32,000 nt of DNA from Dickeya dadantii NCPPB 898 (GTDB taxonomy: Bacteria > Pseudomonadota > Gammaproteobacteria > Enterobacterales > Enterobacteriaceae), in the NCBI RefSeq assembly GCF_000406145.1, contig NZ_CM001976.1, forward strand, positions 2,383,543 through 2,415,542, given 5' to 3'. A model generated the notes under the pieces. The model was not told the origin of the DNA. It searched no databases and saw only the letters and a program-made list of their open reading frames with translations. Shown here piece by piece: positions 19,430 to 26,240 of this stretch; position 1 is the stretch's first letter, and every line of letters begins with the position of its first letter. Position numbers and translations under genes: made by a program.

Positions 19430-20746
19430 GTGGCAAAATTATTTTTACGCAGTGGAAATTTAGACGATTTTCTTGCGTTGGGAGAGAACGGCCAGCCCGT
19501 TTATGCTTCGGCGCTGCAACTACGGGAGACACTGCGTCTTCGCAAACAACAGCACATCGCGGACTGTCTGGCCATCCCCCAACCCAACGAGGATGGCGAC
19601 CGCATCGACTGGTATGCGCCCTTCGCCGGCAAGATAACCTCCTGGATGGCGGCCAGCGACGAACAGCGTGAGCAGGCGTTGCTGGTGCTGGAACAGTATC
19701 TCGGCACCGTTGGCGCCATTAGCGAGCGGGCGCAGCAATCCAACAAGCCGGCACAGAAACTCTTCGGGGTATTGTTGTCGAAAGCCTTTCAGTTTCCAGG
19801 TTCCAATCATGTCTATCTGGTGGACGATAAACCGGTCATCACCTTTTGGGGATTCGTCAGCCTGGGCAAAAAATCCCGCGCTGATGTGCTGGAGTGCCTG
19901 CGCCCGGTTGAACCGGTCGACATTCCCGAGCCGGTTCCGGAACCGCTGCCGGAAGTGACCACACAGGTCGCCGAACCCGAACCGGAACAACCGCCGCCGC
20001 CGGTCGAACCGGAACCGATCGTGGTTGCCGAACCGGTCGCTCCGCCGCAAGCCGCCCCGTCGCCGCGCCGGGTCTGGACCAGCATCTGGTTGCTGGCGCC
20101 GGGCGCCGCGCTGTTGGCGACGCTGGCGTTCCAGATCCGCGGTTGCGTTTCTCAACCCGAAAACAACGCTCCGCCGGCGGTGACCGCCATCAAACCGGAA
20201 AAACGCGCGCTGAGCGCTACGCCGACGGATACGCTTCCACCGCCGAATCTGCCGTTGCAAGTAGCGACGCTGCTGACGCCGCCAGCGCTGGCTGAACAGA
20301 AGAAACCCGAAGAAAAAGCGCCGGAAGCCCCCGCCCATGTCGAGATGAGCGCCGCGCCGAAAGGCGCGCTGGTGATGCCTGCCGACGCAGTAAAAATCGG
20401 CTCCATCCGTTTCCTCGACGGCAACTGGCAGGCGGTCGTTTCCATGAAAAATCCGCTGACCGGCAAACCGCCGGTTCTCCGCTACCAGATCAAAGACGGC
20501 AAAGGCCGGGTTCGCTTTAACTACAGCGAAAAAGTCACCTGCCAGGCTGAGGTGGAAGCCGGGTTGCATCAGTCCGGCAATCTGGTGATCAACAGCCGCT
20601 ATCGGGCGCGCTGCAGCGATGGTTCCCGTTATCCGATGCCGGAAATCGTCTGCACCCGGCAAGAATCGAGCGAGGCCGCAGAATGTAAAGGCCGCTACGA
20701 TGCCGACACAGAGCTACCGATGACGATTAAGCGTGAGAGCAAATAA
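19430..20746 (+). CDS. srfA: SrfA-family protein, predicted bitopic membrane protein
   Basis: The N-terminus MAKLFLRSGNLDDFLALGENGQPVYASALQLRETLRLRKQQ matches my memory of the SrfA family. It has a Pro/Glu-rich linker (aa 158-212), one TM helix (VWTSIWLLAPGAALLATLAFQI, aa 215-236) and a C-terminal domain with 4 Cys. GTG start; no upstream in-frame ATG. Confidence 0.75.
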   Translation: MAKLFLRSGNLDDFLALGENGQPVYASALQLRETLRLRKQQHIADCLAIPQPNEDGDRIDWYAPFAGKITSWMAASDEQREQALLVLEQYLGTVGAISERAQQSNKPAQKLFGVLLSKAFQFPGSNHVYLVDDKPVITFWGFVSLGKKSRADVLECLRPVEPVDIPEPVPEPLPEVTTQVAEPEPEQPPPPVEPEPIVVAEPVAPPQAAPSPRRVWTSIWLLAPGAALLATLAFQIRGCVSQPENNAPPAVTAIKPEKRALSATPTDTLPPPNLPLQVATLLTPPALAEQKKPEEKAPEAPAHVEMSAAPKGALVMPADAVKIGSIRFLDGNWQAVVSMKNPLTGKPPVLRYQIKDGKGRVRFNYSEKVTCQAEVEAGLHQSGNLVINSRYRARCSDGSRYPMPEIVCTRQESSEAAECKGRYDADTELPMTIKRESK

Positions 20747-20748
20747 CC

Positions 20749-23739: not shown

Positions 23740-26240
23740 AACCATTAACGCCCAAACAGCTGTCGAGCCGTCTCAGCCGTCAGTTACAGTCCGTTTCGCA
23801 AGGCGTGGATCAGGCGATCGCCTGGGTGGATGAAACCCGGCGCAACGTTCCCCGCCTGGATATGGAAGCCGATCGGCTTATCGTCAAGCTGCGGCGCTGT
23901 CGCAACAAGGCCCGCGGCCTGTCCGATTCGTCGTTAAAAGAGATCGCCATGGGCATGTTCGGGTTGGCTCAGGGCGGCAAAACTTATCTGCTGACCTCGC
24001 TGGCCGGTAACGAAAACGGACGAATTGAAACCTCTATCGGCGGCGTTACGTTGGATTACCAGAAAAACATCAATCCGGACAACCAGCAACCGGCCTTTGT
24101 CACCCGCTTTACCCGGCAGGCTGAAGGCAAAAACACCCCGAATCCGGTACAGGTCCAGTTGCTCAACGAGGCCGATATCGCCCGAATTATGGCCTATGCC
24201 TTCGTACTGGAAGACAGTCAGAACCCGGCGCCGGAGCTTGACGAACAGCATATCGCCGAGCACCTGAAAACCCTGTCGTTGCACCGCCAGCAGGAAGCGG
24301 TGCCCGGGCTGGACGGCGATGACGTGGTCGCGTTGTGGGATTATCTGGTGCGCCACGACGCCCGGCGTCAAAAGCCGCTGGAACGCAAATTCTGGCCGCT
24401 GGCGGTGGAGCTGGCGCCGCACCTCAGCATCGACGACCGCGCCAGCCTGTTCTCGGTTCTGTGGGGCGAACAGTCGGAATACACTTCGCTCTACCGCCAT
24501 TTCGCCCACACGCTGGAGCAATTGTCCGGCACCCGCAAGGTACTGGCGCCGATCAGCCTGCTGGTGGATGAATCACTGCAACCCGACAGCGGTATTTTCA
24601 ACGCCAACCTGTTCGACCGGCTCAATAGCCCTTCCGATCTCAGCGCGCAGGTGCGCCCCATCGTCAACGGCCGCGCGGCCAGAAATGTAGAGCTGTCGCT
24701 GGCGGAACTGCTCATGCTGGCGGCTGAAGTGCAAATTCCGCTGCTGTCACCGCCAAAGGAAACGTTGTTCGAACAGGTGGACCTGCTCGATTTTCCCGGT
24801 TTCAGCCTGCAGGACGAGCCGGAATTCGAGCCGGACGAGGATAACCCGGAGCGGCTGTTGCGCCTCAAGCCACACCCGTTGTCCCGTGCATTGCTGCGCG
24901 CCAAACGCGCCTATCTGCTGGAGCGTTATACCGACGATCAGGAAATGAATCTGCTGATGGTCTGTACCGCCGCCGCCTGCAAAGCGGACGTACGCCACGT
25001 CGGCCGGGCGCTGGATTTTTGGGTGCGTCATACCCAGGGTGAAAACCCGCAAGTCCGTAGTCGCCGCAAACCCGGCCTGATCTGGGCGGTGACCCGTCAT
25101 GACCGGCGTTTCACCCACGGCTATAACAACGATGAAGCGGTACAGCGTTACGTGGGTAACCCCGGCGATGCCTGGGGCACCATGCTGGCGATGGACAAGC
25201 GCGGCATCAACAGGATGGCGGCCTGGCTGGACGCGGAGGTTCGCCGTGAAGTCAAACTGGGGCGCATCAACGAACAACTGAGCGAATTGCAGCGCGAGCT
25301 GTCCGATAACCTGCTTGGCAGTTGGTATCAGCCGGCCGGCGCCGATGACCCGGCGCACAAACAGCATATCGCCGAGTCGATGCTCAAAGCGTTGCAAACC
25401 CGAACCGGCGTGCACGGCGAACTGCTGGAACGGCTATTGCCTTCCCGCGATGAACTACGTCGGCTGTATCTGCAACAACAGGAACAGGCGCAACGCAACT
25501 TCGCGTCCTATCAGGAAGCGCAGGATACGGCGGTGCCGCTGGTCAGCTATGAACCGTTTGGCGTCGGGATGGATATCGACCTGTTCAGCGATGACGCCGA
25601 CCCGAGCGAAGAAGACGAAACTGTCGTCGCGCCGGCGCCGACCGAGGAAGAGCAAACCGAAAACCACAGCTATGAAGCGGAGTTCGCCCGTAATCTGTAC
25701 CGGTATTGGATCAACCACTTGCGCAACCTACCGGAAAACGTCGCCATCATTGAATTACTGGGGATTAACCGCCCCACCATCGAAATGCTGGTGGAGGAAC
25801 TGATTACGGCCAGCGTGCGGCTGAAGATTGACGATGAGCTGCAAACCATGCTGTTGGATTCCGGGCAACTGGGTATTAACCGGGAAAGCAAAGCGGATCG
25901 ACAGGTTTCGCGCGCGCTCAACGTGCTCGGCGATTTCGTCGCCTGGCTAGGCTTTCAGCAGGTGCCCGAGGCCGGCCGACCGGACAGCCGCGTCAACAAA
26001 GGCAACAAGATCTTTGCCAAGCCGGAAAAGCAAACGGCCAACTTCGGCACCTCCCGACGGTTGACCAAACTGTCGGCGACGCCGGTCAACAATACCGCCT
26101 ATTACATTTATGACTGGCTGATCGGCCTGAACGAGATGATTATCCAGAACGCCGGCTATGCGGCTGGGCGTGACATCAAACCCAAACAGCGCGAACGTCT
26201 GGGAACGATTCTGGGTCTGATCAAACCGACCGAAAGCTGA
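23736..26240 (+). CDS. srfC: SrfC-family protein, with P-loop NTPase (dynamin-like) motifs
   Basis: 834 aa with an ATGA overlap on the srfB stop. Walker A/G1 GLAQGGKT (aa 76-83), VDLLDFPG (aa 348-355; hhhhDxxG) and TRHD (aa 453-456; [NT][KR]xD-like). Acidic low-complexity segment at aa 610-650. Confidence 0.85.
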   Translation: MKPLTPKQLSSRLSRQLQSVSQGVDQAIAWVDETRRNVPRLDMEADRLIVKLRRCRNKARGLSDSSLKEIAMGMFGLAQGGKTYLLTSLAGNENGRIETSIGGVTLDYQKNINPDNQQPAFVTRFTRQAEGKNTPNPVQVQLLNEADIARIMAYAFVLEDSQNPAPELDEQHIAEHLKTLSLHRQQEAVPGLDGDDVVALWDYLVRHDARRQKPLERKFWPLAVELAPHLSIDDRASLFSVLWGEQSEYTSLYRHFAHTLEQLSGTRKVLAPISLLVDESLQPDSGIFNANLFDRLNSPSDLSAQVRPIVNGRAARNVELSLAELLMLAAEVQIPLLSPPKETLFEQVDLLDFPGFSLQDEPEFEPDEDNPERLLRLKPHPLSRALLRAKRAYLLERYTDDQEMNLLMVCTAAACKADVRHVGRALDFWVRHTQGENPQVRSRRKPGLIWAVTRHDRRFTHGYNNDEAVQRYVGNPGDAWGTMLAMDKRGINRMAAWLDAEVRREVKLGRINEQLSELQRELSDNLLGSWYQPAGADDPAHKQHIAESMLKALQTRTGVHGELLERLLPSRDELRRLYLQQQEQAQRNFASYQEAQDTAVPLVSYEPFGVGMDIDLFSDDADPSEEDETVVAPAPTEEEQTENHSYEAEFARNLYRYWINHLRNLPENVAIIELLGINRPTIEMLVEELITASVRLKIDDELQTMLLDSGQLGINRESKADRQVSRALNVLGDFVAWLGFQQVPEAGRPDSRVNKGNKIFAKPEKQTANFGTSRRLTKLSATPVNNTAYYIYDWLIGLNEMIIQNAGYAAGRDIKPKQRERLGTILGLIKPTES

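Follow-up and report, generated by a model that had tools for sequence, protein, structure and literature searches.

The srfABC operon examined here lies in a 32,000-nucleotide stretch of genomic DNA (the window, in what follows), which we assign to Dickeya dadantii because its SrfB product is 100% identical to the SrfB of that species. It is well supported that the operon encodes an inner-membrane adaptor recruiting two cytoplasmic nucleoside triphosphatases (NTPases) that are predicted to be active. On balance, we lean towards a reading in which the three proteins form a two-NTPase complex at the inner membrane, on its cytoplasmic side, and act on the cell's own envelope, and are not an exported toxin. 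The operon has carried the label "virulence factor" since 2000, and hundreds of Proteobacteria, Bacteroidota and Planctomycetes have it. Part of the published work handles it as a toxin; the fold assignments described here make the question experimentally concrete.

The operon consists of three coupled open reading frames (ORFs), laid out exactly as a first-pass annotation of the window, made from the letters without database searches, had claimed: srfA and srfB are separated by a 2-nt gap (junction TAAccATG), and srfB and srfC overlap by 4 nt (ATGA). The genes and the curated models that their products match are as follows.

19430-20746, plus strand: srfA, GTG start, 438 aa, NCBIfam NF040486
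20749-23739, plus strand: srfB, 996 aa, Pfam PF07520
23736-26240, plus strand: srfC, 834 aa, Pfam PF10139

SrfA matches its model at 2e-170 (567.9 bits against a cutoff of 150; aa 3-436 on profile positions 1-438), SrfB at E=0 (1497 bits; aa 1-993 on positions 1-991 of 992) and SrfC at 8.9e-200 (666.5 bits, cutoff 28.1). Since all three models are matched, srfABC belongs to a known family, and these very proteins are annotated already. The A-B-C order is the same in Enterobacterales, Pseudomonas, Aeromonas, alpha- and beta-proteobacteria and Desulfovibrionaceae. Homologs were gathered from 76 loci (gamma-, beta- and alpha-proteobacteria, Desulfovibrionaceae, Bacteroidota, a Firmicute and Planctomycetes), and the motif counts given below come from phylum-spanning alignments of 56 SrfB and 44 SrfC sequences.

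SrfB had been described at first pass as a protein of about 1000 aa with the three nucleotide-binding motifs of the acetate and sugar kinase/Hsc70/actin (ASKHA) fold, and both the predicted structure and the alignments bear this out.

SrfB aa 1-~240: extra N-terminal region
SrfB aa 250-260 (nt 21496-21528): phosphate-1 motif, DLILDVGNSHT
SrfB aa 517-520: connect-1 motif, WDEA
SrfB aa 570-577 (nt 22456-22479): phosphate-2 motif, DIGGGTTD
SrfB aa 766-775 (nt 23044-23073): adenosine motif, DVLLLTGRPS
SrfB aa ~855-975: C-terminal beta-rich domain, a possible counterpart of the Hsp70 substrate-binding domain

When an AlphaFold2 (AF2) model of SrfB (predicted local distance difference test score, pLDDT, 67; predicted template modelling score, pTM, 0.53) was compared with the Protein Data Bank (PDB) by Foldseek, 176 matches were obtained at E<=1e-3. 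The best is DnaK (7ko2_B, E 5.6e-12, prob 1.00), and the top 50 all belong to the Hsp70 family (DnaK, BiP, Hsc70, Ssb, Hsp110); full-length DnaK outscores entries holding the nucleotide-binding domain (NBD) only in the Foldseek ranking. In the alignment, D254, G256, D570, G572, G573, G574, T575, D577, E519, D766 and G772 are present in 56/56 homologs, N257 in 55/56 and D518 in 54/56. D254 and D570 are the two SrfB positions that the first-pass annotation had named, and the invariance spans Proteobacteria, Desulfovibrionaceae, Bacteroidota and Planctomycetes and is the same in a further alignment (A5). Weak secondary Pfam matches of SrfB homologs are to FtsA (4), MreB (2) and HSP70 (2/36, E about 0.1) only; among 36 homologs, none reaches the HSP70 model PF00012 above noise. 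The model and the motifs together support SrfB as a divergent Hsp70-family (ASKHA) ATPase, with hydrolysis predicted.

For SrfC, a protein of about 830 aa with G1-, G3- and G4-like motifs had been proposed. These motifs are indeed conserved across the homologs, and the best structural match is a bacterial dynamin-like protein (BDLP).

SrfC N-terminal helical hairpin and C-terminal helices: stalk
SrfC aa 76-83 (nt 23961-23984): G1, GLAQGGKT
SrfC aa 122-125: switch I, VTRF
SrfC aa 349-355 (nt 24780-24800): G3, DLLDFPG
SrfC aa 453-456 (nt 25092-25103): G4, TRHD
SrfC aa 584-640: acidic disordered insert

The AF2 model (pLDDT 78, pTM 0.75) finds Nostoc BDLP first (2j69, E 3.1e-4, prob 0.99), followed by IniA, the Campylobacter dynamin-like proteins DLP1/2 (5oxf), MFN1/2 and Fzo1; ten of the top 11 matches are BDLP, IniA, DLP1/2, MFN2 or Fzo1, and rank 8 is Dnm1, also a dynamin. 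G1 is kept almost throughout (G76, G81 and K82, the last of which had also been named at first pass, in 44/44 homologs; S/T83 in 42/44), as are switch I (T123 40/44, R124 44/44), G3 (D352 43/44, P354 44/44, G355 39/44) and G4 (T453 43/44; D456 39/44, with N in the other 5). We regard SrfC as supported, on its model and motifs, as a predicted GTP-hydrolysing, divergent dynamin-like protein of the BDLP/mitofusin class, and this dynamin assignment is weaker than the Hsp70 assignment of SrfB.

SrfA carries one hydrophobic segment, in agreement with its first-pass description as a bitopic membrane protein.

SrfA aa 1-~160: SrfA-N, predicted cytoplasmic domain, with a Pro-rich linker between it and the membrane segment
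SrfA aa 215-237 (nt 20072-20140): single transmembrane (TM) segment, Kyte-Doolittle hydropathy (KD) 1.68, RR on its N side
SrfA aa ~315-438: SrfA-C, predicted periplasmic beta domain

Four cysteines of the C-terminal domain (C371, C395, C408, C419) are conserved in 33-34/36 homologs. Because a lone TM helix is preceded by RR and these four cysteines are kept, SrfA is probably an N-in/C-out inner-membrane adaptor with a disulfide-bonded periplasmic domain. An architecture of the same type is described in a recent preprint, which claims a kinase-like fold for SrfA-N and a lipocalin fold for SrfA-C (bioRxiv 10.64898/2026.09.18.752743), and the FLDGNW, TGKP and CSDGS motifs of the Dickeya protein match the SrfA-C motifs given there.

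The SrfA profile (hmmsearch) also matches other TM proteins encoded in the same srf clusters, in which the fusion partner of SrfA-N is a trypsin-like peptidase, a vWA (von Willebrand factor A) domain, a TerD-like region (a label that is an NCBI annotation only) or, with SrfA-C also present, an S8 subtilase. Examples of such fusions, given by our locus labels, are the following.

L055, 16853-19285: SrfA-N fusion
L037, 6892-8634: SrfA-N fusion
L035, 182-2305: SrfA-N fusion
L025, 6233-8236: SrfA-N fusion

Since SrfA-N is found on peptidase, subtilase and vWA TM proteins of the same clusters, the fusions argue that it could be a reusable cytoplasmic docking module shared by these proteins. It is represented by 960 protein clusters in a library of 1.84 billion proteins. 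The subtilase fusions with SrfA-C come from Bacteroidota, where several SrfA-N paralogs also stand in a row, and the trypsin-like fusions from alpha-proteobacteria and a Firmicute. Two proteins (P0241, 635 aa; P0275, 674 aa) each contain two SrfA-N-matching stretches, which could be tandem docking domains or fused genes.

The neighbourhoods of the homologs extend this picture. SrfC adjoins SrfB in 60 of the 64 evaluable loci, with the order inverted in Planctomycetes. In 33 of 48 loci, outside core Enterobacterales, an accessory block follows srfABC; it comprises a second single-pass TM protein with Sel1/TPR-like repeats, a secreted vWA protein, an ATP-binding cassette (ABC) ATPase and an FtsX/MacB-type permease, with a protein resembling formylglycine-generating enzyme (FGE/SUMF1-like) and a glycine-zipper lipoprotein as further members. 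Without this block, srfABC stands alone in Dickeya, Pectobacterium, Brenneria, Yersinia, Rouxiella, Pantoea, Erwinia and Morganella. The largest form is a cluster of 12 genes; it is carried by Klebsiella plasmids (114 records) and by 31/5426 E. coli genomes, where it occupies a tRNA-Phe island.

L079, 9992-26847: 12-gene cluster, Klebsiella pneumoniae IncFIB plasmid
L080, 7233-24088: 12-gene cluster, E. coli ET650 chromosome, tRNA-Phe island

Its genes encode, in order, a glycine-zipper lipoprotein, a hypothetical protein, an SrfA-N/TerD-like protein, SrfA, SrfB, SrfC, a TM protein, a vWA protein, an ABC ATPase, an ABC permease, a SUMF1-like protein and a hypothetical protein. Because it is bracketed by insertion sequences (IS) in both settings, with an identical SrfB accession (WP_023288355.1), it would have been transferred horizontally, and recently, as a whole functional unit. 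The three-gene form is instead inherited vertically in Pectobacteriaceae and Yersiniaceae: its identity tracks phylogeny, and its flanks in D. lacustris are those of this window. The three-gene module of the first-pass annotation is confirmed, the Dickeya operon being the minimal, reduced core of a widespread envelope system of 9-12 genes.

Xenorhabdus stockiae SrfA, SrfB and SrfC form a complex by co-immunoprecipitation (co-IP) and native polyacrylamide gel electrophoresis (PMC6950479), and an AlphaFold3 (AF3) model seats SrfB and SrfC on SrfA with an interface pTM (ipTM) of 0.66 (bioRxiv 10.64898/2026.09.18.752743). From complex formation onwards we infer the steps that follow, the topology of SrfA, docking on SrfA-N, nucleotide hydrolysis and the output at membrane or envelope included. 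SrfA would span the membrane once, with its N-domain in the cytoplasm and a disulfide-bonded beta-barrel domain in the periplasm, and SrfA-N would be the docking platform for both NTPases. There, SrfC may undergo GTP-driven assembly or conformational switching and SrfB ATP-driven clamping, and their action would be coupled through SrfA-N anchors to the inner membrane or to periplasmic/extracytoplasmic modules. The output could be membrane remodelling or repair, envelope shedding, or a changed state of extracytoplasmic partners. The larger version brings further components: another TM protein, a vWA protein in the periplasm, an ABC transporter of the MacB/LolCE type, lipoproteins and an FGE-like protein. 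The first-pass preference for a tethered NTPase machine over a secreted effector fits both these neighbourhoods and the SrfA-N fusions.

Several points weigh against this interpretation, and it should be read with them in mind. The published experiments on Srf proteins describe cytotoxicity, not an envelope function. The docking role of SrfA-N is based on fusions, the preprint's model and co-IP from another genus. The SrfB model is of middling confidence (pLDDT 67), with long low-confidence insertions; the Foldseek E-values of SrfC are just 1e-4 to 1e-2, none of 36 SrfC homologs matches Pfam Dynamin_N (PF00350) at E<=1, and their weak Pfam matches are to AAA_16, MMR_HSR1, RsgA and GBP. No membrane paddle or TM segment is recognisable in SrfC, so its attachment to the membrane would be indirect, via SrfA. 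Structure and profile searches had been proposed at first pass as the check on both folds, and they part company: Foldseek matches both, while profile searches miss the HSP70 and Dynamin_N models. When PDB sequences, DnaK and RdcA were the targets, profile searches with SrfB and SrfC matched at motif level only, and for that reason the fold memberships are based on predicted structures and motifs. With hhalign, the SrfB family meets E. coli DnaK locally at the adenosine motif only (P 5e-4) and the SrfC family meets E. coli RdcA (YjdA) at the P-loop only (5e-3), against 0.3-0.8 in crossed controls; single-sequence and profile searches of PDB chains returned nothing relevant (pdxS 0.75, kallikrein 2.2, EngB P-loop 0.24).

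Dynamin-like proteins are parts of known defence systems, and srfABC could itself be an anti-phage or conflict system, in which the NTPase core senses envelope attack and either seals or protects the membrane, as reported for the DynA and LeoABC/Eleos dynamins, or releases periplasmic effectors (peptidases, vWA, TerD). The first-pass annotation had raised this option, which is favoured by the layout of a constant core with variable SrfA-N fusions (trypsin-like peptidase, S8 subtilase, vWA, TerD-like) and by the mobility of the IS-flanked 12-gene version; vWA and FGE-type domains and a weak EAD9 match also recur in the conflict systems of PMC7159879. Defence databases and neighbourhoods point the other way. 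SrfA, SrfB and SrfC have 0 matches in PADLOC-DB v2 at E<=0.1, and the flanks are not enriched in defence genes: of the 135 genes flanking about 60 srf loci, a handful match defence models (one type I methyltransferase; mad2 and WYL twice each), the other flanks being diverse housekeeping genes. The defence-island linkage for which a neighbourhood survey had been proposed is therefore not borne out, and nor is the flagellar linkage, since no flagellar neighbours are conserved. No phage-borne copies were found, and Kaur et al. 2020 (PMC7159879) do not mention Srf. The three-gene form occurs throughout Pectobacteriaceae, Yersiniaceae and Erwiniaceae, with phylogeny-tracking identity, a conserved upstream region and synteny in D. 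lacustris, and the Salmonella operon belongs to the flagellar regulon (PMC4219756). We consider a conflict system unlikely, and an envelope complex remains the reading that we prefer.

The operon was found in Salmonella as SsrB-regulated, and databases label the proteins "virulence factor", both of which would suit an exported tripartite toxin that enters eukaryotic cells and triggers apoptosis. This is the Xenorhabdus reading, to which export in outer-membrane vesicles has been added as a proposal (bioRxiv 10.64898/2026.09.18.752743). When E. coli lysates or proteins with the SrfABC of X. stockiae were applied to insect and mammalian cell lines they proved cytotoxic, and injection kills Helicoverpa larvae, full activity requiring all three proteins (PMC6950479). 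The first-pass statement that the family is annotated only as a virulence factor of no established mechanism was right about the mechanism and incomplete on the literature, given this toxin work and the swarming work in Salmonella (PMC4219756). The cytotoxicity assays used overexpressed proteins or lysates, however, and Salmonella Srf proteins are stated not to be substrates of the type III secretion system (T3SS; bioRxiv 10.64898/2026.09.18.752743). As had been noted at first pass, none of the three proteins bears a Sec signal or the C-terminal signal of a type I secretion system (T1SS): Pfam finds no RTX/HemolysinCabind repeats, and the N-termini are hydrophilic by direct reading, with no signal peptide, whereas the neighbouring Prt proteases do match RTX. 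SrfA is predicted to be stably anchored in the inner membrane by its internal TM segment, and the partners that are conserved belong to the envelope rather than to any delivery module. Every catalytic residue expected of a cytoplasmic NTPase is moreover kept in the SrfB and SrfC of free-living non-pathogens (Methylococcus, Methylocapsa, Desulfovibrio, Roseomonas, marine Flavobacteriia, Planctomycetes). Taken with the envelope partners that favour our own reading, this makes a toxin quite improbable.

The region upstream of srfA bears on a further alternative, that srfABC is a dedicated accessory of flagella or surface motility, a class-2 member of the flagellar regulon aiding flagellar assembly or wetting-agent production in swarming. 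A multi-genus alignment places a candidate regulatory or promoter region there.

19310-19371, plus strand: conserved upstream regulatory/promoter region (candidate)
19310-19339, plus strand: conserved block CAAATATTTGTCATATTTGTCACTTCTTTA
19345-19350, plus strand: -35-like TTGATT, followed by a 15-nt spacer
19366-19371, plus strand: -10 element TATAAT

These blocks, and the GTG start of srfA, are conserved; the blocks are kept in Dickeya, Pectobacterium, Brenneria, Yersinia, Rouxiella, Pantoea and Erwinia. The TTGATT/TATAAT pair is a putative promoter on this evidence; a consensus sigma-70 scan found no site upstream of srfA, having missed the pair because its spacer is 15 nt. The CAAATATTTGTCATATTTGTCACTTCTTTA block contains a direct repeat (ATATTTGTCA/ATTTGTCAC). 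Pectobacterium and Brenneria share the block, Yersinia shares it in part, and it is a candidate binding site for a regulator, matched to neither FlhDC nor any other one. A sigma-28-like sequence, GCAGATAA, in Pectobacterium and Yersinia was rejected as a site, having the wrong spacing and being degraded in Dickeya. About 150 nt before srfA, at 19268-19283, a perfect 6-bp palindrome (ATCGCA-CTTA-TGCGAT) with a T-rich run was listed as terminator-like by the scan, yet there is no plus-strand gene for it to terminate, and other genera do not keep it.

Conservation of the upstream region across motile Enterobacterales favours the motility alternative, as do the published data: the Salmonella operon is a class-2 member of the FlhDC regulon, and srfB, srfC and whole-operon mutants swarm poorly and swim normally (PMC4219756). 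In Erwinia amylovora, srfABC is down-regulated in planta together with chemotaxis and motility genes. In Dickeya, by contrast, no FlhDC or sigma-28 site was recognised by eye upstream of srfA. The conserved neighbours include no flagellar genes, and Tenacibaculum, Polaribacter and Paludibacter have the SrfB-SrfC pair as well. These Bacteroidota are known for gliding rather than flagella. We give a dedicated motility role little credence and see in it at most a lineage-specific use of a general machine; the swarming defect and the co-regulation would both fit an envelope role during surface growth, which is the reading that we retain.

At its other end, the operon had been credited with its own terminator, and a stable hairpin does follow the srfC stop, with a weak U-tract.

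26246-26276, plus strand: terminator-like hairpin GGCGGAGC-ATTAC-GCTCCGCC, then CUUUCAGC

Its folding energy is -23.3 kcal/mol (z-score -5.8), and 0/200 shuffles fold equally well; the consensus terminator scan did not list it because of the weak U-tract.

Beyond Dickeya, a broader idea may be put forward tentatively: SrfB and SrfC, with the proteins that carry SrfA-N, might constitute a class of machine, as yet unrecognised, that spans the envelope and works as a nucleotide-gated inside-out switch or as a device for shedding membrane. In it, an Hsp70-like ATPase and a dynamin-like GTPase would act via a shared docking domain on single-pass membrane proteins, and would so control a lipocalin-like barrel, peptidases, vWA and TerD-like domains, as well as a MacB-type ABC transporter. 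If true, such machines could serve immunity, surface colonisation or vesicle-mediated virulence, depending on the lineage, and the three-gene form of Dickeya and Salmonella would be their minimal working core. A conserved pairing of Hsp70-like and dynamin-like proteins would also give bacterial dynamins a new theme, what they do in the cell being mostly unclear. In the searchable literature we found neither the Hsp70-like and BDLP-like assignments, nor any report that peptidase and vWA proteins reuse SrfA-N, nor the idea that srfABC is a mobile 9-12-gene envelope system cut down to its core; the ABC, vWA and FGE neighbours in Haemophilus and Xenorhabdus had already been noted (bioRxiv 10.64898/2026.09.18.752743). 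Two papers (PMC5683332, PMC3946378) call enterobacterial srfABC surfactin-biosynthesis genes, a mix-up with the unrelated Bacillus srfA operon, and this naming trap affects the reading of transcriptome data.

The remaining features of the window concern the surroundings of the operon. The minus-strand interval 6232-17843 is a complete Dickeya protease secretion locus.

6232-7692, 8099-9538, 9689-11134 and 16365-17843, minus strand: four serralysin-type metalloprotease paralogs
11346-12734, minus strand: T1SS outer membrane protein (OMP) gene
12747-14096, minus strand: T1SS HlyD-type membrane fusion protein (MFP) gene
14107-15834, minus strand: T1SS ABC gene
15854-16213, minus strand: small ORF whose position matches the Inh inhibitor gene of D. 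lacustris
Upstream of srfA, minus strand: the prtG/inh/prtDEF/prtCBA metalloprotease/T1SS cluster as a whole
Upstream of srfA, minus strand: NmrA-like gene
Downstream of srfC: GMC oxidoreductase gene and ferritin-like gene

As the first-pass annotation had it, srfABC lies beside this T1SS locus and in the opposite direction, with all prt genes on the minus strand and srfABC on the plus strand. The prt-adjacent position is kept in D. lacustris, the one other Dickeya species examined, and not in Pectobacterium atrosepticum. A functional tie between srfABC and the protease/T1SS locus was considered and rejected, as the flanks differ in Pectobacterium and Brenneria and the Srf proteins have no RTX signals; for Dickeya and other soft-rot pathogens, prt adjacency alone is no ground to call srfABC a secreted effector. 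Downstream, a 152-aa ORF (26808-27266) runs into the first part of the GMC-oxidoreductase gene (27080-29101), for which it may be either the small subunit or the true upstream gene; in D. lacustris the pair is missing there, and srfC is followed directly by the ferritin-like/SnoaL gene. An Rfam search of the window gave no match, and a repeat search gave matches at chance level only.

Among known systems, the closest are the SrfABC proteins of Salmonella enterica and X. stockiae, which belong to the same family by the three curated models and share the A-B-C order and tight coupling; the Dickeya SrfB is about 59% identical to a plasmid-borne copy in S. enterica. No categorical difference separates Dickeya from these; its locus lies beside the prt cluster. 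Like Salmonella, it lacks the vWA/ABC/FGE block that Xenorhabdus, Haemophilus, Pseudomonas and Aeromonas have. With Hsp70/DnaK, SrfB shares the phosphate-1, connect-1 (DE), phosphate-2 (DIGGGTTD) and adenosine (GRP) motifs, and it differs in some 240 extra N-terminal residues, in large NBD insertions and in having no DnaJ/J-domain or GrpE genes among the conserved srf neighbours. SrfC shares, on its model, the large GTPase domain and helical stalk of BDLP, Campylobacter DLP1/2, IniA, LeoABC and mitofusin/Fzo1, together with dynamin-like motifs (G1 GxxxxGK[ST], a switch-I consensus GLVTR that reads FVTRF in Dickeya, G3 DxPG, G4 TxxD). Unlike these bacterial dynamins, it has no Dynamin_N match and no paddle or TM segment, and its obligate partner is an Hsp70-like ATPase, not a second DLP; having no PADLOC match, it matches no dynamin-based defence system in that library.

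A related pairing is seen in cyanobacteria, where a Dynamin_N-positive protein lies beside an SrfB-like protein (hhalign prob 94.6%, E 7e-8); against SrfC, this dynamin gives a weak hhalign match over the P-loop and switch I (prob 31%, E 5e-4). The pair looks like an independent dynamin/Hsp70-like partnership, and its occurrence makes such partnerships look old. The genes stand in trios (L069-L076, Nostocales and others; e.g. L071 5086-13336) encoding an 855-aa Dynamin_N protein, a distant SrfB relative of about 990 aa and a protein of about 370 aa with no Pfam match, and these trios may be related to the Srf core as cousins, or they may belong to the GTPase/Hsp70 conflict systems that Kaur, Burroughs, Iyer and Aravind described in 2020 (PMC7159879). 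Membership of srfABC itself in the DO-GTPase/Hsp70 systems of that study is rejected because the core proteins differ, the core being DO-GTPase/GAP1 or MoxR there and SrfB/SrfC here. The Srf clusters also differ in that their variable modules are extracytoplasmic and that the three-gene form is vertical, not island-like. With both the MoxR-vWA ternary systems and those joining a DO-GTPase to Hsp70 and tubulin, the Srf clusters nevertheless share a grammar: a constant NTPase core combined with vWA, peptidase and FGE-type modules, association with the membrane, and a third component that serves as adaptor.

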